Shown here: positions 1,975 through 12,801 of the stretch, in pieces
Numbering within the stretch: position 1 is the stretch's first letter
Layout: each line of letters begins with the position of its first letter
IMG/VR virus record: IMGVR_UViG_3300002307_000058
Coordinates: 1-62,165 of that record
DNA length: 62,165 nt
Strand: one strand, 5' to 3'
Source of the DNA: a virus
Taxonomy: Duplodnaviria; Caudoviricetes
Made by a program: the position numbers and the translations under genes
The notes under the pieces: generated by a model
Database searches by the model: none
Told to the model about the DNA's origin: nothing
The model's input: the letters and a program-made list of their open reading frames with translations, nothing else

Positions 1975-2813
1975 TCACGACTACGCGAAACGGCCAAATG
2001 AACGATTTCTATGTTTATGCCCTCGTAAGGCTCTCAGACAACCGCCCTTGCTACATCGGCAAAGGTCGTGGGGACCGAGTGCATCGACACAACCTCATGG
2101 GTGAAAATCACCCCAACCAACATCTGGCGAGAATTTACCGCAAAGACGCTTCGCCTCTGGAGCACGAGATCGTTTGTGCGAATCTCTCCGAGCGACAAGC
2201 GTTTGACCTTGAGCGGGACTTGATCTTCCTCATTGGTCGCACGAGCAAAGGCCTTGGCCCGCTTTGCAACATGACAGACGGCGGAGAGGGAACCTCTGGA
2301 TTCGTTCCGGCGTTCACGGAGGAGCATCGGAAGAAGATCGCCCTTTCCAAGCGTGGAATTCCACGCTCTGAAGAATGCAAAAAAAAATTGAGCGAAAGTG
2401 GAAAAGGCAAGCGCCCCTCTCCAGAGGCAATCCAGAAGATTGTTGCTGCGAACACGGGGAGGAAAAGATCGGTGGAGTTTGGTTTGGCGATCAGCGCCAG
2501 ACAAAAAGGCCGCGCTCTCTCTCAAGAAACAAAGGACAAGATTGGGTCGGCAAATCGCGGGCGCTCTCCCTCCGAAGAAACTAGGGCAAAACTGAGCGCG
2601 GCGAGCAAAGGCCGAAAGTATCCCGACGAGATCAAGGAAACCTTTTCCGCCGCCGCTAAAGAGCGGGCCAATCGTCCACAAGAGCGCCTTAAGTCGAGTC
2701 AAAGAAACAAAGGCCGAGTTCACACGCCCGAATCCAGACAACGAATGAGCGAAGGCCGACTTCGCGCTGCCGAAGCAAGACGCTTGGCTAGAAATATCGA
2801 GGAAAGTCCATGA
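1971..2813 (+). CDS. Free-standing GIY-YIG homing endonuclease with NUMOD3 repeats
   Basis: FYVYAL...YIGKG..R, NMTDGGEG, then repeated S.E.(R/K).K(I/L)S...KG units; lower GC than flanks; start may be ATG 1998. Confidence 0.88.
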   Translation: MITTTRNGQMNDFYVYALVRLSDNRPCYIGKGRGDRVHRHNLMGENHPNQHLARIYRKDASPLEHEIVCANLSERQAFDLERDLIFLIGRTSKGLGPLCNMTDGGEGTSGFVPAFTEEHRKKIALSKRGIPRSEECKKKLSESGKGKRPSPEAIQKIVAANTGRKRSVEFGLAISARQKGRALSQETKDKIGSANRGRSPSEETRAKLSAASKGRKYPDEIKETFSAAAKERANRPQERLKSSQRNKGRVHTPESRQRMSEGRLRAAEARRLARNIEESP

Positions 2814-4282
2814 CTTCGACCTTGCAGATCAACGGCGCGACCACGGGCAACGCTCTTCAGACCCTGCTTGTCGCTCCGGACATACAGCCCGGAGACGAGG
2901 TAAGTTATCAACTCTGCAAGGAAATTTATGCGTGGCACCCCATGGGTGCAAAACTGGCCGACTTCCCCATCGCCATGGCCCAGTTCAAACCTCGCAAGAT
3001 CGCCGTCCCGGACGGCCCGGAGGACGTTCTGGTCGAGGCTTTCGAGCGCGAATGGAAGGCCTGCGACGCTTCCCGCGTGATCTTCAACGTGGCGCGTCTG
3101 GCTCGGGTCTATGGGGTCTCGACGCTGGCCCTGCTGGTCGAGGGCGTGCAGGCCGGATCCCCGGTCAACTTTGAAGAACTGGCAGGCAAGAAGATCGCCT
3201 TCAACGTCTTCGACCCGCTCAACACCGCCGGATCACTGGTGCTCAATCAGGATCCGAACGCCTTCGACTTTCAGAAGTCGGACGGCGTCACTGTGCAAGG
3301 GGTGGAATATCACCCATCCCGGACGGTGACGATCATGAACGAAGATCCGATCTATATTGGCTACACCCAATCGGCCTTTGGATACGTTGGCCGCTCGGTC
3401 TACCAGCGGGCGCTCTATCCCCTGAAGTCGTTCATCAACACTCAGATCACCAACGACATGATCGCCCTGAAGGCCGGTGTTTTGATCGCCACCTTGGACC
3501 AGCAATCGTCCGCTGTGGACAAACTCATGGCCAACATTGCAGGCCAGAAGCGGGACATGGTCAAGGGGGCCTCGGTCGGCAACGTGATCTCCATCGCCGT
3601 GGGCGAGGACATCCAGAGCCTGAACCTCCAGAACCTTGACGGCGCGTTCGGCATGGCGCGCAAGAACATTATCGAGGACATCGCCACCGCCGCCGGGACG
3701 CCGTCCAAGCTCCTCCTCTCCGAGACCTTCGCGGAGGGCTTCGGCGAGGGGACGGAGGACGCAAAGCACGTCGCCCAATATATCCAAGGCCTGCGCGAGT
3801 GGATGCAAGACCTATACGACTTCATGGACACCATCGTCCAATATCGGGCGTGGAACCCGGAGTTCTACGAAACGATCCAAGCTCGGTTCCCCGAGGAATA
3901 CGGCAAGAAGGACTACAAGCAGGCCTTCTATGCGTGGCGAAACGGCTTCAAGGCCGAATGGCCACCGCTCCTCGAAGAGCCCGACAGCGAGAAGATCAAG
4001 GTCGACGAGGCCAAGATGGAGGCGACGATCTCAATGGTCGAGGTCCTGCTTCCCCAGATGGATCCGGAGAACAAGGTCCGTGTGATCCAGTGGGCCTGCG
4101 ACAATTTCAATTCCCTGAAGCTCCTGTTTGATTCGCCGCTCGAACTGGACTGGCAGGCGCTTGAAAACTACGAACCGCCCCAGCCCGAAGAGCCGCCGGG
4201 CGAGCCAGCGCCCCCCAAGCCCAAGGCTTTGACCGACGCCGTCCGCGCCGCCCGCAAGAGGACAACCCGCCGTGAAGGTTGA
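2810..4282 (+). CDS. Portal protein (DUF1073-type)
   Basis: 490 aa after terminase; ARVYG, YHPSR, GRSVY and AAGTP.KLL....GF..GTED motifs. Confidence 0.88.
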   Translation: MTSTLQINGATTGNALQTLLVAPDIQPGDEVSYQLCKEIYAWHPMGAKLADFPIAMAQFKPRKIAVPDGPEDVLVEAFEREWKACDASRVIFNVARLARVYGVSTLALLVEGVQAGSPVNFEELAGKKIAFNVFDPLNTAGSLVLNQDPNAFDFQKSDGVTVQGVEYHPSRTVTIMNEDPIYIGYTQSAFGYVGRSVYQRALYPLKSFINTQITNDMIALKAGVLIATLDQQSSAVDKLMANIAGQKRDMVKGASVGNVISIAVGEDIQSLNLQNLDGAFGMARKNIIEDIATAAGTPSKLLLSETFAEGFGEGTEDAKHVAQYIQGLREWMQDLYDFMDTIVQYRAWNPEFYETIQARFPEEYGKKDYKQAFYAWRNGFKAEWPPLLEEPDSEKIKVDEAKMEATISMVEVLLPQMDPENKVRVIQWACDNFNSLKLLFDSPLELDWQALENYEPPQPEEPPGEPAPPKPKALTDAVRAARKRTTRREG

Positions 4283-7491: not shown

Positions 7492-8046
7492 TCAGTAGTA
7501 TTCGGAGAAGTGAGAACCCTCCCCGGCGGCGCAAGGGTAAGCCCTCGCGTAGAAGGCGATCTTGAAGGACCCGTGGCTGATCTGCTTGACCATCGGCTCG
7601 CCTATGAACTTGCCGGGGACCGGGTAAGCCTTGCCCTGCATGGCGTGGCTATATTCCCGCTCGGCGGCGATCTTGCGAACCTTGACGCTCCGGACGCCGA
7701 CCAGTTCGACGACCTCGTAATAGTCCACTTGGGTCTGCTCGTAACCCCAAGAGCAACGGAACAACTGGCCGACCTTGAAGCCGTGGGGCTTGGCCAGTTC
7801 GGCCTTTTCCTTGGCTTTCTTCTCCGCCTTGCAAGCCTCGATGGCGGCGACGTGGGCGAAGAACTCTTTCGCCTTGGCCTCGCGCCGTTCGGGGCTCTTG
7901 AACTTCAGCCACCAGACGGGCTTGGCGGACTTGCCGCTGTAGGCGATGGCGCAGGCCTGACCGCAAACCTCGTAGGCGTGGATCTCGGCGCTGGACGCCT
8001 TGGCCTTGACGATCACGGAACCTTCGGGGGAGAAACGCTGCAACAT
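7492..8046 (-). CDS. Hypothetical phage protein (SWGYEQTQVDYY motif)
   Basis: AAGGAG RBS, strong codon bias, own promoter. Confidence 0.8.
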   Translation of the reverse strand: MLQRFSPEGSVIVKAKASSAEIHAYEVCGQACAIAYSGKSAKPVWWLKFKSPERREAKAKEFFAHVAAIEACKAEKKAKEKAELAKPHGFKVGQLFRCSWGYEQTQVDYYEVVELVGVRSVKVRKIAAEREYSHAMQGKAYPVPGKFIGEPMVKQISHGSFKIAFYARAYPCAAGEGSHFSEYY

Positions 8047-8078
8047 GGTGAGAACTCCTTCTCTGAAAACCTGCAATC

Positions 8079-8122: not shown

Positions 8123-8404
8123 TTATCCCTCGACTTCGACCTCAATCCCTGCCCAGCGCTGCTTGCGATAGCCGCGCAAGGCCTTTTCGCCTTGGACGAG
8201 GCGGTGTTTGACGAAGTAGGACCCGGCCCAAAGCCCCTTGATCTTCTCGGAGAAGGCCTTTTCCGCCTCCTCGATCTCTGCGAGGTTCTTGACCTCGACA
8301 AACTCCCGGCCAAGCGCTCCGGAGAAAGGCGCGTAGTGCACCATCTTGACGCCCGGTTCGCACTCGCTGAACCAGCACTTGAAAGCATAGACTTGGATCT
8401 TCAT
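8123..8404 (-). CDS. Hypothetical protein
   Basis: AGGAGG RBS before ATG 8404. Confidence 0.7.
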   Translation of the reverse strand: MKIQVYAFKCWFSECEPGVKMVHYAPFSGALGREFVEVKNLAEIEEAEKAFSEKIKGLWAGSYFVKHRLVQGEKALRGYRKQRWAGIEVEVEG

Positions 8405-8417
8405 GGGATGCGCCCTC

Positions 8418-8582
8418 CTAGGCGGCAATGGACCGGAGCAGGGCGCTCCGGTGGTGGATCAGGGAACGAGCGGCGGCGGCGACCACGCAGCGGCCTCTGG
8501 CCAAAACCCGCAACTCTGCTAGACTTTTGCGAACCAGCCCGTGGGCCAACTCCGCAGAGAGAATTTCTTGGTGGGAGAACAT
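8418..8582 (-). CDS. Small hypothetical protein
   Basis: GAGGAGG RBS before ATG 8582; promoter TTGCGT-N16-TAAGAT at 8608-8635. Confidence 0.55.
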   Translation of the reverse strand: MFSHQEILSAELAHGLVRKSLAELRVLARGRCVVAAAARSLIHHRSALLRSIAA

Positions 8583-8662
8583 GACAACCTCCTCAAGGGA
8601 CAATTTGATCTTAGAGGATATCTCACAACACGCAAGAACTTTCTTTCTCTTTTTCACACAAA

Positions 8663-8863
8663 ATGACAAGCCGGGAGGATTTCACTTCCGCCGAAGCGGC
8701 CATGCAGGAATTTCTCCTGACGCTGGACCAGTTCCACAAATGCTGCGCGGCGGGCTATTGGTCGCTGGCGCAAGAGATGTCACTCGTGGCCTCGGCCCGG
8801 CTGGAATCGCATCTCGATCTGTTTCTCTCGGGCGCTCGAAAGGTGATCAGCGATGGCGAATGA
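8663..8863 (+). CDS. Hypothetical protein (66 aa)
   Basis: ORF overlapping the start of the MuF gene. Confidence 0.45.
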   Translation: MTSREDFTSAEAAMQEFLLTLDQFHKCCAAGYWSLAQEMSLVASARLESHLDLFLSGARKVISDGE

Positions 8864-10637
8864 ATCTTTCTACGACGTGATCACGCAGGCCATCGCCGAC
8901 TTCGCCAAGCACGGCTACGATAGCGCCGAGCGCATGGCCTATTGGCAGGAGCGGATCCGGCAGGCGGCGGAACGGTCCATGACCCCAGCTTGGCGGATGG
9001 AGGAGCAACTGCGGGCGTCCATGGGCGCGATCTACAAGCGCATGGTCGAGAACGCGGGAGCCCTGCGTTATCATCCGGGCGTGAGCCGGTTCACCCTCGA
9101 CAGCTTGCGCCCCCGGCTGCACGACGAGCTTCGCCGCCGGATCCTCGCCAGCGCCGACCTGATCCGGCTCAATCGGTCGCAGGCCATTGAGAAGACCCTG
9201 CAACGGTTCAGCGGCTGGGCTTCGTCCGTCCCGACCGGCGGGTCAAAGACCATCGACCGGGTCGACGAAAAGAAGACCCTGCGCAAGGCCCTCACGCAGC
9301 TCCCCTTTGAGGAGCGCCGAGTTTTGGTGGATCAGGGGACGAAATTGGTCGCCTCCATAAACCAAGTCATTGCGAGTGATGGAGGGGCTATTGCCGTAAA
9401 ATGGAACAGCCATTGGCGCGAGATCAACTACAACTATCGGGAAGACCACAAGGAGCGCGACGGCCAGATCTACCTGATCCGGGGATCGTGGGCGTCCAAG
9501 GGAGGCTTGGTCCAGCAGGGCGAGGCAGGCTACTACGACGAGGTCACGGCTGTCGCCGAGGAGCCCTTTTGCTTCCCCGGAGACTCAGAGATCCCATTCG
9601 CGGACGGTATAGAAGCCGCGTTTCGTCGTTGGTATGTCGGCGACTTGGTTGAGATGGTCACGTCGTCTGGAAACCGGCTTAAGGGAACACCGAACCACCC
9701 AGTCCTTACGTCGAAGGGTTGGGTCGCGCTGGGTTGTCTCAAGGAAGGCGACAACGTTGTCGAGATTTGCGAGAAAATGGGCCTCGGTCTTGAGCGTGAC
9801 AATCACGGAACAAAAGCCCGAATCTCGGACGTGTTTGCGGCGGTCGGGCGTGCTGGGTTTGCTGAAAAAAGAAGCGGCGGCAGTCACCAGTTCCACGGCG
9901 ATGGATCTGAACGCGACGTCGATGTTGTAAGGGCCGCACGGCCATTGACCTTCGACAGCATGACCCCGCGCCCGAAGCGCCTCGATCAAGGCCAGTTCTC
10001 CTTGACCAACTTGCGTAGATCTGCGGGACGCGCGTTTGATTTTTGTCTCCATGGAGTTGTGCGTTCCGCGCAGGGCGTCGTGAGCGGCTTGGGTCAGCTT
10101 CTTTCGCCCCTGCTCGCCCTCTCTCGCCATCCGAATCAAATTTGCCTCGCTGCGCCCTCGTTGCACCAGCCCGCCCTCTTTGATGGCGCGCACAACCACG
10201 GCGCGGGAGACGTCAAAGTCTCTGGCGATCTGGAGCACGCTTCGCCCTTCCGAGTGCAACCGGCAAACCTCCGCCGGGGGCAAGTCGATTCGGTTGTGGG
10301 CGGATCTCGGGACTGTGTCGAGCGAGACCTTCTGACTGTAAATCCGGCCCCAGAGCGTGCGAGGATTGACGCCCATGATTTTGGCGATCTTTTCGACGGA
10401 AAGCCCTTCTCCACGCAGCTTGGAAAGGTGGTCGAGGTCGAGCGGAACCATTGGTCTGGGCATGTCTACAATCTCCAAACGGAAGCTGGTTGGTATGTAA
10501 CACAAAATATCATTACGCACAATTGCAGATGTTTCGCCACCTACATATACCACTTGCGCCAGCTTCCCCCTGACATGCTGACCAAAAAGGGCCAGCTTCA
10601 ACTCGAAGAGGCTCGGCGCAAGATTGCGGCGCTTTGA
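8853..10637 (+). CDS. MuF/SPP1 gp7-like head morphogenesis protein containing an intein
   Basis: YREDHKERDG motif; splicing restores EPF-CRC, the MuF Cys motif; 276 aa after splicing. Confidence 0.85.
   Translation: MANESFYDVITQAIADFAKHGYDSAERMAYWQERIRQAAERSMTPAWRMEEQLRASMGAIYKRMVENAGALRYHPGVSRFTLDSLRPRLHDELRRRILASADLIRLNRSQAIEKTLQRFSGWASSVPTGGSKTIDRVDEKKTLRKALTQLPFEERRVLVDQGTKLVASINQVIASDGGAIAVKWNSHWREINYNYREDHKERDGQIYLIRGSWASKGGLVQQGEAGYYDEVTAVAEEPFCFPGDSEIPFADGIEAAFRRWYVGDLVEMVTSSGNRLKGTPNHPVLTSKGWVALGCLKEGDNVVEICEKMGLGLERDNHGTKARISDVFAAVGRAGFAEKRSGGSHQFHGDGSERDVDVVRAARPLTFDSMTPRPKRLDQGQFSLTNLRRSAGRAFDFCLHGVVRSAQGVVSGLGQLLSPLLALSRHPNQICLAAPSLHQPALFDGAHNHGAGDVKVSGDLEHASPFRVQPANLRRGQVDSVVGGSRDCVERDLLTVNPAPERARIDAHDFGDLFDGKPFSTQLGKVVEVERNHWSGHVYNLQTEAGWYVTQNIITHNCRCFATYIYHLRQLPPDMLTKKGQLQLEEARRKIAAL
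9570..10523 (+). mobile_element. Intein (318 aa) in MuF
   Basis: Block A CFPGDSEI, block B GTPNHPVLT..GW, block F VYNLQT, block G ITHN/C. Confidence 0.92.
9585..10463 (-). CDS. HTH-HTH-DUF559/Vsr-like endonuclease encoded antisense inside the MuF intein
   Basis: GGAG RBS before ATG 10463; two HTHs (GLSVEKIAKIMGV, GRSVLQIARDFDVS); GELALIEAL...G..VEGQ...GPYNIDVA..IAVE. Confidence 0.75.
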   Translation of the reverse strand: MPRPMVPLDLDHLSKLRGEGLSVEKIAKIMGVNPRTLWGRIYSQKVSLDTVPRSAHNRIDLPPAEVCRLHSEGRSVLQIARDFDVSRAVVVRAIKEGGLVQRGRSEANLIRMAREGEQGRKKLTQAAHDALRGTHNSMETKIKRASRRSTQVGQGELALIEALRARGHAVEGQWPCGPYNIDVAFRSIAVELVTAAASFFSKPSTPDRRKHVRDSGFCSVIVTLKTEAHFLANLDNVVAFLETTQRDPTLRRKDWVVRCSLKPVSRRRDHLNQVADIPTTKRGFYTVREWDL

Positions 10638-10662
10638 CTATCGCGGCGTTTTGCAGTATCTC
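10634..10662 (+). promoter_or_regulatory. Possible sigma70-type promoter
   Basis: TTGACT-N17-TATCTC. Confidence 0.4.
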
Positions 10663-10686
10663 TCGCCCTGAACCACGGGATCTCAA

Positions 10687-11088
10687 ATGGCATCGAACCT
10701 GAACATCTCGCTGGTGGCCGCACAGGCACAAGCCACGGCTCTGGCACCTCTTGCCAACACCGGCTTCATTGACATTTACTCGGGGACGCAGGCCGCAACG
10801 CCCGAGACCGCACCGGGCGTCACCGCACTGGCGACGTTCACGCTCCCGGCGACCTTCGCCTCAAGCATCACCAACGGCGTGATCACGGCCAACGCCATCG
10901 GCAGCGTGGTCATCTCTAACTCCGGCACCGCGACTTGGTTCCGGTGCTGGGAGGCCAACCACACCACGCCCCTGTTCGACGGCACGGTCGGAACCTCCGG
11001 CTGCGACATGAACCTCAACTCGGTCGCGCTGTCCTCCGGAGCCTCGCTCCAGATCAGTTCTCTGACCTTCACCGTTCCGGGCGTCTAA
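10687..11088 (+). CDS. Virion structural protein
   Basis: T/S/G/A-rich beta protein with GTATWFR...DGTVGTSG motif common in phage structural genes. Confidence 0.7.
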   Translation: MASNLNISLVAAQAQATALAPLANTGFIDIYSGTQAATPETAPGVTALATFTLPATFASSITNGVITANAIGSVVISNSGTATWFRCWEANHTTPLFDGTVGTSGCDMNLNSVALSSGASLQISSLTFTVPGV

Positions 11089-11091
11089 CCC

Positions 11092-12801
11092 ATGACCGAC
11101 GGCGTCGTCCTCAATCCCGGCACAGGTGGCGCGACCGTCGACACCGAGACCAATGCGTCGCGCAGCAATGCGCAGATGCAGCGGATGAAGCTGGTCCTCG
11201 GTGACGTGGACGTGGACGGCGGTGACGTATCTCTGACCAACCCCGCGCCGGTCATGTTGTCGCGGGTCAACTACGTCATCAGCACCCTGAACTCGACCAC
11301 GACGCAGCTTGCGGCGGGCCAGACGTGGACGGGCGAAATCGAGGCCGGGGACTCCCAGCCTGCGATCTCCATCGACGTGGTGTCGGACCAGAGCGGCACC
11401 CTGACGCTGAGTCAGTTCATCGACGCAGCAGGCACCCAACCTCTGCGTCCGGTTGTCTTTCCGATCACAGCGGGCGTCGGCTTCGGCTGGTCCCTGACGC
11501 TGAACGGGAACTATGTCCGGCTTTCGTTCCTGAACGGCGGAATCGGCCCGACGACCACGCTGTCGATCAGCACGGCCTATGGCGTCATCAATTCAGCCAC
11601 GTCGCTGGGCAATGCGCCAGTCGCCATGATGGAGGTCGGCGGACAGACCATAGACCCCAACATCGGCTTCCCGGTCGACGTTCAGGCGGTCAATGGCGCT
11701 CCGGTCGCGACTAAGGGTATACCGGTCGTTGACCCTGTCATCGCGTCTGCGTCCGAGAACGAGCGCCCCCTGTCTCAGGTCATCGTCGGCTCCGGTGATG
11801 GTGACTATGCCGGGCAGAGCCTGATCGAGCTCCTGATGAACCCCGACTCCAAGGAGTCGGCGGCGGTGCGGGTCGTCAACCCTCCGAAGCTGGACGCCTC
11901 TGGGGCGACGGTCGTCTCCGACGCGCTCTCTCCGGGGACCTACACCTTCGGCGGCGCAAACCAGCAGATCATCGTTGACACGACGGGATATGCGTCCGTC
12001 GCTCTGGCCATTGTCGGCACTTGGGCGGGGACGATCACCTTCACCCAGTCCAACGACCTCCAGACGTGGCAGACGCTTCAGGGCGTGGTCAGTTCGGCCC
12101 CGCAGGTCGCGCTAGGAGCGACATCGGTCAACGGGCAGTTCCTCTTCCCCGCCATGGCCCGCTATGTGCGCGCCCAGATCACGACCTATACGTCTGGTCT
12201 GGCCGTCCTCGTTCCCTACCTCCGCATTGCCCCCTTCACGGCGCTTCAGGCGGCGAACCTGAACTTCATCAACGGCACGGCTCCTGTCACGGCGAACGTC
12301 GCGGGCATGCTCGCTGTTGGCGGCAACATCGCCCACGGATCCGCGCCCACGGCCTTCCCTCTGCTGGCGGGTGGCACGGACTACAACGGTCTGACCCGCC
12401 GGGTCCAGACCGACAACAGCGGCAACCAGATTGCCGCTGGCTCGCTTCCGGCAGGTTATGCTGTCGGCCAGTATAACGTGACCTATAGCAAGACCACGGT
12501 CGCCTTCGCCTCCGCCCAGTTCCCGACCCTGACAGCGGCGCAGAGTTCTGTCGCGCCGGTCCTGATCGGCGGCGTCGACCCCGGCGGCTTCGTTCGTCAG
12601 GCCCAGACCACGCCGTCCGGCCAGTTGTCGGTCAGTCTGGACGCGCCCAGCGCATCCGGCCAGTCCGTGGCCGAGCTTCTGGCCCAGCTTGTTGCTCTGA
12701 TGCGCGTGAACAACTATTATCAGGCGGTCGGCCTTGGCCCCACCGCCGACGACCCCGAGGCCGTCCTCGGCGAATATCTGGCTCAAAACCCCATCAACTG
12801 A
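11092..12801 (+). CDS. Putative virion fibre/decoration protein (569 aa)
   Basis: Beta-rich, low charge, in structural operon. Confidence 0.6.
   Translation: MTDGVVLNPGTGGATVDTETNASRSNAQMQRMKLVLGDVDVDGGDVSLTNPAPVMLSRVNYVISTLNSTTTQLAAGQTWTGEIEAGDSQPAISIDVVSDQSGTLTLSQFIDAAGTQPLRPVVFPITAGVGFGWSLTLNGNYVRLSFLNGGIGPTTTLSISTAYGVINSATSLGNAPVAMMEVGGQTIDPNIGFPVDVQAVNGAPVATKGIPVVDPVIASASENERPLSQVIVGSGDGDYAGQSLIELLMNPDSKESAAVRVVNPPKLDASGATVVSDALSPGTYTFGGANQQIIVDTTGYASVALAIVGTWAGTITFTQSNDLQTWQTLQGVVSSAPQVALGATSVNGQFLFPAMARYVRAQITTYTSGLAVLVPYLRIAPFTALQAANLNFINGTAPVTANVAGMLAVGGNIAHGSAPTAFPLLAGGTDYNGLTRRVQTDNSGNQIAAGSLPAGYAVGQYNVTYSKTTVAFASAQFPTLTAAQSSVAPVLIGGVDPGGFVRQAQTTPSGQLSVSLDAPSASGQSVAELLAQLVALMRVNNYYQAVGLGPTADDPEAVLGEYLAQNPIN

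Follow-up and report, generated by a model that had tools for sequence, protein, structure and literature searches.

The 62,165-base virus record IMGVR_UViG_3300002307_000058 (Duplodnaviria; Caudoviricetes; GC content 61%), which was analysed in its entirety as an IMG/VR record and is called the window here, contains a MuF-like head-morphogenesis gene holding an intein, and the DNA of this intein can be read as protein on both strands. The element is probably a class-1-type intein with a dual-coding antisense gene that encodes a Vsr/DUF559-like homing protein. An initial annotation, made from the letters of the window alone, had described an intein of 318 amino acids (aa) with intact splicing motifs and, on the minus strand, an open reading frame (ORF) of 292 aa that covers 879 of the 954 intein bases. 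The coordinates and counts of both were confirmed. Comparison with related loci supports the view that the DNA is truly dual-coding and that the antisense ORF is a real, selected gene, whose product has two helix-turn-helix (HTH) domains and a Vsr/DUF559-like fold.

Judged on the window by itself, an open mirror frame would be no more than a mild surprise, and it is the comparison with other loci that makes the case for dual coding decisive. In the window 3.6 blocking codons were expected in the opposite frame, which would be open by chance with a P of about 0.03. When viral sequences were searched by pattern with the antisense protein, 53 loci (GC 0.39-0.69) came to light, and in all 53 of them there was a sense ORF homologous to the intein-bearing gene of the window, with the two frames codon-aligned. 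The opposite frame was open over the match in every one of these loci, fully in 52 and over 729 of 753 nucleotides (nt) in L041. Expected blocking codons ranged from 0.6 to 15 per locus and summed to about 193 over 40 non-redundant loci (near-identical loci were omitted from this set and from the 41- and 23-locus sets), and none breaks either frame. The same arrangement was found in eight of nine cultured-phage loci examined, namely Aaphi23 (GC 0.42), Salmonella phage BPS11Q3, Klebsiella phage RCIP0054, Edwardsiella phage MSW-3, two Vibrio phages, Gordonia phage Vivi2 and Mycobacterium phage Sejanus. No intein is present in L141, the ninth locus, which served as a natural control. It holds a free-standing homologue of the antisense gene, and the mirror frame of this homologue contains 12 stops in 298 codons, which is what an unconstrained mirror frame looks like.

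The selection test used 13 sequences of the window's MuF group, with protein identity of 40-46%. Over the exteins and splicing half-domains the third codon position of the sense frame was the most variable (0.44-0.64 vs 0.24-0.44 at position 1). Over the centre of the intein (residues ~314-513 of precursor P0003) the most variable position was sense position 1, which is antisense position 3 (0.53-0.70 vs 0.35-0.60). Uncorrected ratios of nonsynonymous to synonymous differences (pN/pS), from the 78 pairs of these sequences, were 0.53 in the sense frame and 1.07 in the antisense frame for the N-extein, 0.40 and 0.97 for the N-terminal splicing part, 0.90 and 0.64 for the centre, and 0.40 and 1.06 for the C-terminal splicing part with the C-extein; because the sequences have diverged almost to saturation and pN/pS is biased where frames overlap, evidence is taken from the flip between regions and not from the values. 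A comparison of homologous MuF inteins strand by strand had been suggested as a check on the dual-coding claim, and the lower pN/pS does move to the antisense frame in the centre. These sequence comparisons support the conclusion that the centre of the intein is under selection as antisense sequence, and the splicing blocks and exteins as sense sequence.

The two frames also differ in their predicted structures. AlphaFold2, run on both as the initial annotation had proposed, gave the antisense protein a mean predicted local distance difference test score (pLDDT) of 94.2 with no segment below 50, and the sense intein a mean of 58.5, although the alignments were unequal (92 sequences for the antisense protein and 23 for the intein) and favoured the antisense run. 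Within the sense intein the splicing parts were predicted well (83-95 for residues 1-60, 78 for residues 61-70 and 85-94 for residues 280-318), and pLDDT fell below 50 at residues 128-159 and 164-278. The central ~190 residues of the sense frame had no match in Pfam or NCBIfam, in agreement with the earlier remark that they show no recognisable domain. The models support an unstructured linker as the sense-frame centre.

The splicing motifs of the sense intein are complete. It starts with CFPGDS, has TPNH (T40 and H43) in block B and GHVYNL in block F, and ends in THN, after which the C-extein begins with CRC. These are the residues of a class 1 intein, with a nucleophile at position 1 (C1), TxxH in block B and H317-N318 followed by cysteine, and C1, T40, H43, H317 and N318 were invariant across 23 aligned inteins. 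With the HN pattern the C-terminal boundary can be set in 26 of 39 loci, and nearly every one of these reads HN followed by C(R/S/L/V)C. Eight of the other 13 have SN, KN, QN or RN ahead of the cysteine. The 80 best N-extein homologues (44-66% identical) comprised 70 without an intein, six with one and four that were cut off, and the 70 intein-less proteins pass straight from the N-extein into C(R/S)C. The intact C1, TxxH and HN-C residues, together with these 70 homologues that join exactly at the intein boundaries, suggest that the precursor undergoes protein splicing. Against the TIGR01445 model the window intein scored 21.5 bits (cut-off 24.5). Its relatives L025 and L045 were above the intein profile cut-off, at 38.5 and 39 bits.

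The naming of the host gene as MuF held in part. The N-extein matched phrog_324 (head morphogenesis, expectation value (E) 1.4e-13), and BLASTP tied the gene to loci bearing PF04233 (Phage_Mu_F), but the Pfam scan of the window's exteins gave no Phage_Mu_F call. Homologous host genes carried PF04233 or PF06152, and in 10 of 10 diverse loci scanned the intein came directly after position 107 of the 112 positions of the MuF domain. The intein with its antisense gene was also present in portal-MuF fusions (L034, L048 and L052), in a MuF protein with NUDIX (L039) and in one with InPase (L051), the extra domains of the last two being C-terminal and NUDIX-like or inorganic-pyrophosphatase-like. These fusion-borne copies indicate that the insertion site tracks the MuF domain and not one gene architecture.

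In the model of the antisense protein two HTH units of three helices each are followed by a long helix and an alpha/beta core, and the chain ends in a beta-hairpin. Both HTHs claimed in the initial annotation were recovered: Pfam matched HTH_7 (E 9e-9, 35.8 bits, cut-off 23.8) and HTH_23 (E 6.6e-8, 32.6 bits, cut-off 24.6), each in two stretches. Using Foldseek against PDB, the N-terminal part resembled the bipartite DNA-binding domains of Tc3 transposase (1u78) and of the CRISPR repeat-binding protein Cbp1 (2lvs). An N-terminal DNA-binding part with two HTHs, as in the EDxHD type of enzyme, is thus present by HTH_7, HTH_23, 2lvs and 1u78. The protein also matched the endonuclease-like protein 3hrl (template modelling score (TM) 0.73 over the target, probability 1.00) and the catalytic domain of I-Bth0305I (3r3p; TM 0.64, probability 0.98). 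The family profile searched against PDB sequences found 2lvs (E 1.2e-8) and 3hrl (E 1.2e-5). A phmmer search of PDB sequences with the single antisense protein found nothing significant. Residues E156, Y179, D182, V190 and E191 were invariant across 92 sequences. By the 3hrl alignment and by spacing, rather than by residue-level superposition, D182 corresponds to the metal-binding Asp (D51 in Vsr, D196 in I-Bth0305I) and E191 to the acidic residue at the Vsr F62 position. Shorter elements, with inteins of 264-281 aa, were seen in L005, L018, L019, L020, L023 and L028 and lack the first antisense HTH. The tblastn matches of these short forms begin at query residues 27-70, mostly 58-70, so that the antisense family exists in one-HTH and two-HTH versions.

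The start, Shine-Dalgarno-like site and stop of the antisense gene are all written in codons of the intein splicing blocks. A GGAG ribosome-binding site hidden in block F had been noted from the sequence, and it is present 9 nt ahead of the ATG. Among 40 aligned loci the start column holds ATG in 28 and GTG in 2, and the codon-aligned frame of L052 also has Met in this column. Synonymous codon choice in the sense frame favours these signals. The block F His is CAT in 24 of 26 loci, where 11.6 were expected from the other ORFs of the loci (p 4e-7), and the block F Leu is CTC, the reverse of which is GAG, in 19 of 32 (8.7 expected, p 1e-4). Left out of this test were L001, L004 and L043, which have no other ORFs, L050, L051 and L052, excluded manually, and L048 and L049, with a gap in the start column. 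At the other end of the antisense gene, 23 of 23 inteins have a single blocking codon in the stretch of their first 75 codons, and it falls within residues 2-12, mostly on Ser6. Residues 13-75 contain no blocking codon in any of the 23, against 16.9 expected over residues 7-62 in the 19 loci with estimates, which means that the antisense frame stays free of stops across the whole of blocks A and B.

The protein sequence read from the reverse of blocks A and B is recognisable across the family. Of the 150 best database representatives, 116 have the tail motif [WR][VM][VIL][RWG][CGSR], a codon-by-codon mirror of block B (P-N-H-P), within their final 75 residues, against none of 150 shuffled sequences. 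It lies mostly 38-42 residues from the end, as in the window. An earlier, stricter pattern for mirrored block B had matched 65 of 114.

A candidate promoter element was seen in block G. In many loci TATAAT stands at antisense positions 10-15, counted from the intein's C-terminal edge, as the reverse of the Ile-Ile codons ATT-ATA, and the implied -10 box would lie about 45 nt ahead of the antisense ATG. The summed match to TATAAT was 109 of 138, against 86.8 +/- 2.4 under synonymous resampling, with none of 2000 simulations reaching 109, in a signal that was spotted post hoc, after inspection of the data. The rare Ile codon ATA was used in 9 of 12 loci (2.0 expected). We regard TATAAT in block G as a lead for one subfamily and not as an established promoter. 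The last 60 bases of the intein, at 10464-10523, which hold blocks F and G, have a GC content of 0.38 compared with 0.61 for the genome, and the same dip was seen in all 23 inteins examined, the window included. This dip fits antisense expression signals but is no proof of them. A terminator scan of positions 8400-11200 gave four terminator-like sites (2.6 +/- 1.7 expected) and was uninformative.

The gene in L141, Acinetobacter phage vB_AbaM_IME285 (MH853786.1), encodes a free-standing, full-length homologue of 297 aa that is annotated as a hypothetical protein. The homologue and an intein-less MuF-like gene (455-1348 on the plus strand and 1342-2055 on the minus strand) are convergent and overlap by 7 nt. 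The MuF-like gene ends in ...CKCRAKL..., without an intein. In hhalign the IME285 protein matched the family with probability 100 and E 2.2e-50 over residues 1-293, tail hairpin included, and it is 32% identical to the antisense protein of Aaphi23 over the full length. The same match occurred in two more Acinetobacter phage records. Free-standing homing endonuclease genes of phages have a habit of standing beside their target. The IME285 arrangement shows that a member of this gene family can exist on its own next to its presumed target, and the retention of the hairpin there indicates that the tail belongs to the protein and is not mere read-through. The mirror of the IME285 tail is still block-B-like; this follows from the conservation of the tail itself and so does not separate escape from an intein from ancestry to one.

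The intein is scattered among its possible hosts, as expected of a mobile element, which it had been inferred to be. Even the nearest N-extein relatives of the window (66% identical) lack an intein. On an N-extein tree of 89 rows (15 carriers and 70 non-carriers, with four truncated loci unlabelled) the intein label needs at least 11 changes, nine of which are forced by well-supported branches; shuffled labels needed 13.9 on average. Presence and absence at one exact site thus conflict with the host-gene tree. Loci L121, without an intein, and L122, with one, have identical N-exteins, and their DNA is 99.87% identical over the 3713 nt up to the insertion point. At this point (locus position 3711-3713) only L122 has ~957 extra bases, and beyond them identity drops to 85.9%, so that the intein also marks a recombination boundary. 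On sequence evidence the scatter fits homing, or at least frequent exchange at the exact site, whichever protein causes it. An apparent intein-less allele in run X4 (0.47 of words) was rejected, as it was patchy low-depth cover of the same intein-bearing sequence; contigs from X4 cross both intein junctions and contain no intein-less joint.

The antisense ORF had been predicted to be conserved, and besides the 53 viral loci tblastn found the family in 125 cultured-phage records, including phages of Salmonella (62), Gordonia (15), Pseudomonas (15) and Klebsiella (8), and of Vibrio, Aggregatibacter and others. An exhaustive HMMER search gave 1668 cluster representatives at E <=0.001, 816 of them at E <=1e-10. 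Other routes recovered little: a single relative came from a protein search with a word index, two weak matches of 145 nt were all that blastn of the gene yielded among cultured phages, and a pattern search of genome contigs gave 34 matches, none of which was confirmed. Five representatives were looked up of the 150 listed, and all were singletons on contigs of 1.1-2.6 kb, as would be seen if the antisense ORF were called by gene finders only in places where the host gene is truncated. The annotated intein-bearing phage records examined, none of which has the antisense ORF called, support this idea. Among the nine phage records examined, the sole mention of an intein was in L142 (Vibrio phage 1.197.A._10N.286.54.F2, MG592566.1), where the coding sequence NVP1197A_08 has an annotation note reading 'Intein C-terminal splicing region' from InterPro.

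We propose the following mechanism. A class-1-type intein would be inserted just ahead of the conserved Cys-Arg-Cys of the MuF-like gene, and the precursor would consist of two Hint half-domains (intein residues 1-70 and 280-318) joined by a linker, of which about 150 residues (128-278) are predicted to be disordered. This linker would need only to remain open and harmless, and splicing would then restore MuF. The same DNA, read codon for codon on the opposite strand, would give a separate 292-aa protein with a bipartite (paired-like) double HTH, a Vsr/DUF559-like core related in fold to the EDxHD enzyme I-Bth0305I, and a C-terminal beta-hairpin. Its start, Shine-Dalgarno-like site and stop would be written in synonymous codons of blocks F and A and, in part of the family, a TATAAT would be written likewise in block G. 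With these signals inside the splicing blocks, the element would carry its own expression signals wherever it goes. In co-infection the protein would bind and cut or nick an intein-less MuF allele near the insertion point, and repair would copy the intein and the antisense gene into the cut allele. Homing is, in our judgement, the most likely function of the antisense protein.

Besides the near-saturation of the selection test and the unequal alignments already mentioned, several results weigh against this proposal. The initial annotation had recognised a DUF559/Vsr-like nuclease pattern, of which the Vsr-like fold stands (3hrl, 3r3p) but not the DUF559 assignment at the level of sequence: the antisense protein had no Pfam match to DUF559 (PF04480) at E <=1 and only a weak match to MTES_1575, a DUF559-like restriction endonuclease, over residues 158-187 (E 0.1). 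Atlas neighbours with DUF559 were taken as leads only. The family profile matched I-Bth0305I (3r3p) weakly (E 0.073). The departure from the usual E-x-D-G..H segment that had been noted was confirmed. Distant members have AVEIFGGxWH after the Glu, with a Vsr-type His, where the window reads AVELVTAAAS with Ser198 in the place of this His, so that the general base of Vsr and EDxHD enzymes (H69 in Vsr, H213 in I-Bth0305I) is replaced. By a crude pattern the His is missing in at least 100 of the 114 best representatives with the YN(I)D core, and no part of the core varies more than the region that follows E191. As regards the sense strand, the Pfam Intein_splicing match of the window intein (E 1.3e-7, 32.0 bits) lies below the curated cut-off of 35.8. 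As regards expression, a promoter scan of positions 8400-11200 found no sigma-70-like site on the minus strand, the -10 position of the window reads AATGAT (four of six) and is not above the expectation from its amino acids, and TATAAT was present at that position in one of six independent cultured-phage loci with a resolved block G (a Salmonella phage). Among the sequencing runs found to contain the stretch four were freshwater DNA runs, three of which may be its source, and none was an RNA run. Ser198 and the weak -10 match suggest, on sequence grounds, that the copy in the window may use a changed chemistry or be past its active phase.

It is conceivable, though unlikely, that the antisense gene is real and selected but that the protein it encodes has lost its nuclease function or, in this subfamily, never had one. 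The protein could serve in regulation, assist recombination or guard the insertion site, with the scatter of the intein resulting from ordinary phage recombination. The replacement of the general-base His by Ser in the window and its loss from most close relatives point in this direction, as does the variability after E191, and the recombination boundary in the L121/L122 pair could also be produced by general recombination. However, the invariance of E156, D182, E191 and Y179 in 92 sequences is hard to explain without a metal site, the fold matches are nucleases, and distant members keep the full GGxWH motif. A single insertion site in one gene family, together with a free-standing homologue beside an intein-less MuF gene, also corresponds to the habits of homing endonuclease genes.

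We consider it very improbable that only the sense intein is of importance and that the antisense ORF, lying in GC-rich DNA, is open by chance or is a relic without expression. The P of about 0.03 for the window, the missing promoter-like site on the minus strand and the fact that annotators had not called the ORF in any of the eight intein-bearing cultured-phage records examined are compatible with a relic. They are set against a frame open in 53 of 53 loci with GC down to 0.39, an antisense-type substitution pattern, two HTHs above the Pfam cut-offs with a pLDDT of 94, a codon bias that creates the ATG and the Shine-Dalgarno-like site, and the 12 stops in the mirror frame of the free-standing homologue. 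It is just as hard to credit that the host gene is in effect fractured, with N and C parts made apart and joined in trans and the open sense centre incidental: Vsr-like endonuclease genes are described between split-intein halves in Dassa et al. 2009 (PMC2677866), but here an uninterrupted sense frame spans the insert in 53 of 53 viral and eight of nine cultured-phage loci (the ninth, L141, being without an intein), an open sense frame requires steady avoidance of TTA, CTA and TCA in the antisense gene, and no conserved separate C-terminal start was seen, though no search aimed at one was made.

A dual-coding intein with a homing gene on its opposite strand therefore remains the preferred reading. 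A wider version of it is tentative, and as a whole we lean slightly against it. In this version the intein and the antisense gene would be interlocked beyond anything described, with start, Shine-Dalgarno site and stop in codons of blocks F and A and, in one subfamily, a -10 box in block G. The hairpin, in the last ~55 residues, would come from the reverse of blocks A and B, so that a good part of the DNA of the Hint domain would serve two functional proteins; it would have arisen by overprinting on the intein and later have left with the gene, as in the free-standing Acinetobacter copy. The family would be old, being present in phages of several bacterial phyla, and the replacement of the His in most members would represent a new catalytic variant. 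Coordinates of the features are collected in Table 1.

Table 1. Features of the intein-bearing MuF-like gene and of the antisense gene, in window coordinates
Feature	Position	Strand	Remarks
MuF-like head-morphogenesis gene holding the intein	8853-10637	+	ORF, 594 codons + stop; phrog_324; BLASTP
N-extein, 239 aa	8853-9569	+	70 intein-less homologues pass directly into C(R/S)C...
Intein, 318 aa, C1 to HN, then Cys+1	9570-10523	+	precursor residues 240-557
N-terminal splicing domain, intein residues 1-70, blocks A and B	9570-9779	+	AlphaFold2; pN/pS
Stop of antisense gene, TGA	9585-9587	-	reverse of intein Ser6-TCA
Antisense gene, 292 codons + TGA, codon-aligned with the intein frame	9585-10463	-	ATG at 10463, stop at 9585-9587
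C-terminal beta-hairpin, antisense residues 255-289, reverse of blocks A-B	9597-9701	-	pLDDT 96-97
Vsr/DUF559-like nuclease core, antisense residues 156-251	9711-9998	-	E156, Y179, D182, E191 invariant; S198 at the place of His
Sense-frame linker, intein residues 128-278, open, no fold	9951-10403	+	pLDDT; no Pfam/NCBIfam match; sense pN/pS 0.90 over a wider centre (P0003 305-535)
Second HTH, antisense residues 63-96	10176-10277	-	HTH_7 at 64-88; helices 63-71, 76-83, 87-96; 2lvs profile match
First HTH, antisense residues 10-43	10335-10436	-	HTH_23 at 16-41; helices 10-18, 23-30, 34-43
C-terminal splicing domain, intein residues 280-318, blocks F and G	10407-10523	+	AlphaFold2; GHVYNL...THN conserved
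Start of antisense gene, ATG	10461-10463	-	reverse of block F His-CAT codon (G-H-V-Y-N-L)
Shine-Dalgarno-like GGAG, 9 nt before ATG	10473-10476	-	reverse of block F Leu-CTC + next C
Candidate -10 position, AATGAT (4 of 6)	10509-10514	-	reverse of block G Ile-Ile codons
C-extein, 37 aa, first residues CRC, + stop	10524-10637	+	

The genes around the locus include a terminase at 529-1974, a portal at 2810-4282 and a virion protein at 10687-11088. An adjacent island of minus-strand genes had been described, and this was partly upheld. Just upstream of the MuF gene the minus strand carries at least one real gene, at 7492-8076 (194 aa), which matches phrog_37844, of unknown function (E 2.6e-25), but the neighbouring minus-strand ORF at 8123-8428 had no match.

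Long antisense overlaps in which both proteins are functional are rare and often doubted in bacteria and phages. In the present family dozens of diverged members act as natural replicates, and in them both frames are demonstrably kept. The family has an internal control, in that the selected frame flips between the centre and the splicing blocks, and an external one in the stop-filled mirror of the free-standing homologue. One piece of DNA would solve two problems: the intein hides the insertion at the protein level, and the inverted gene keeps its signals independent of the late head gene. For annotation it serves as a warning, as the antisense gene is missed by gene callers wherever the host gene is complete. 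Sense-synonymous stops could switch off the antisense protein and leave the intein untouched, and cultured carriers exist.

The core of the initial interpretation survived, namely dual coding, a real antisense gene, the ribosome-binding site and start in block F, the unstructured centre and the scattered distribution. The novelty it implied was overstated, because endonuclease ORFs in anti-sense orientation within inteins are already in print. Gosselin, Arsenault and Gogarten (bioRxiv 10.1101/2025.01.02.630785, main text of the October 2025 version) report non-canonical endonucleases in 63 of 784 actinobacteriophage inteins, among them anti-sense LAGLIDADG or VSR-like ones, in DNA polymerase, minor capsid, terminase and thymidylate synthase hosts. 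According to that text the VSR-like type has an HHpred link to 3R3P, the architecture is rare, and a long helical part is without a meaningful PDB match; the anti-sense LAGLIDADG case is credited there to Gorbalenya 1998. These inteins and that of the window share a contiguous intein, an endonuclease as a separate anti-sense ORF, a Vsr-like core and an unstructured in-frame centre, and minor capsid proteins are one of the four hosts of the non-canonical endonucleases. The architecture as such has thus been reported, and the window adds another member.

Our tblastn searches found the window's protein family in antisense orientation in the MuF genes of Gordonia phages Vivi2, Fosterous and Affeca. 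The Vsr-like family was likewise antisense in MuF-like genes of Gordonia phages Affeca, Sedona, Keitabear and Angelicage, and the same four phages are named as 'cluster 47' in a passage of the preprint on endonuclease VII-like out-of-frame inteins. They may carry two different inteins each, or the classes may overlap. A literature search on MuF with intein, MupF and Aaphi23 found nothing relevant.

InBase presumably lists a 'MupF' intein for Aaphi23.

Other known systems share some traits with the window. Anti-sense LAGLIDADG inteins (Gorbalenya 1998; Gogarten et al. 2002, as cited in 10.1101/2025.01.02.630785) also have an endonuclease ORF on the opposite strand, but differ in nuclease family and in their hosts, Synechocystis DnaX and a Chloroflexus SpoVR-like protein. 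The Vsr-like genes described by Dassa et al. 2009 lie, like ours, at the endonuclease-insertion point of an intein in phage-like DNA. In the cases described there, however, the gene has the orientation of the host gene, the frame is broken and the intein is split, whereas in the window the gene is inverted, both frames are open and the intein is contiguous. The ShiLan insertion in phage DNA methylases (PMC11855218) is likewise inserted in frame in a phage gene and conceals an endonuclease ORF in a different frame. Its endonuclease is of the HNH type and not Vsr-like, it is described as out-of-frame with no mention of the opposite strand in the passage concerned, and the insertion was not identifiable there as an intein or intron.

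Among enzymes a close comparison is with I-Bth0305I, the prototype EDxHD homing endonuclease (Taylor et al. 2011, PMC3239194; PDB 3r3p). As described in that paper, it shares with the window protein two N-terminal HTH/NUMOD-like motifs and a C-terminal Vsr-like core that has the metal-binding Asp and, where Vsr has Phe62, an acidic residue. It differs in being encoded in sense orientation by a group I intron and in having H213 where the window protein is without the general-base His, and the window protein has in addition a C-terminal beta-hairpin and only the weak profile similarity given above. By the definition of Taylor et al. the window protein lacks one of the residues that define the EDxHD motif.

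The systems nearest to the window thus remain the anti-sense VSR-like inteins of the preprint by Gosselin et al. In contrast to those actinophage inteins, the window belongs to an uncultured freshwater phage, and its family reaches well past actinophages. The helical part is here a double HTH, and the antisense ORF, while complete and opposite to a contiguous sense frame, runs through blocks A and B and starts in block F, so that it overlaps these three blocks too. The words 'promoter', 'ribosom' and 'helix-turn-helix' do not occur in the preprint's main text, to which the comparison was confined. Relative to that main text, the present analysis adds the breadth of the family, a frame-by-frame test of selection, the expression signals in blocks F and A, and perhaps G, and an N-terminal splicing part that appears to be doubly coding.

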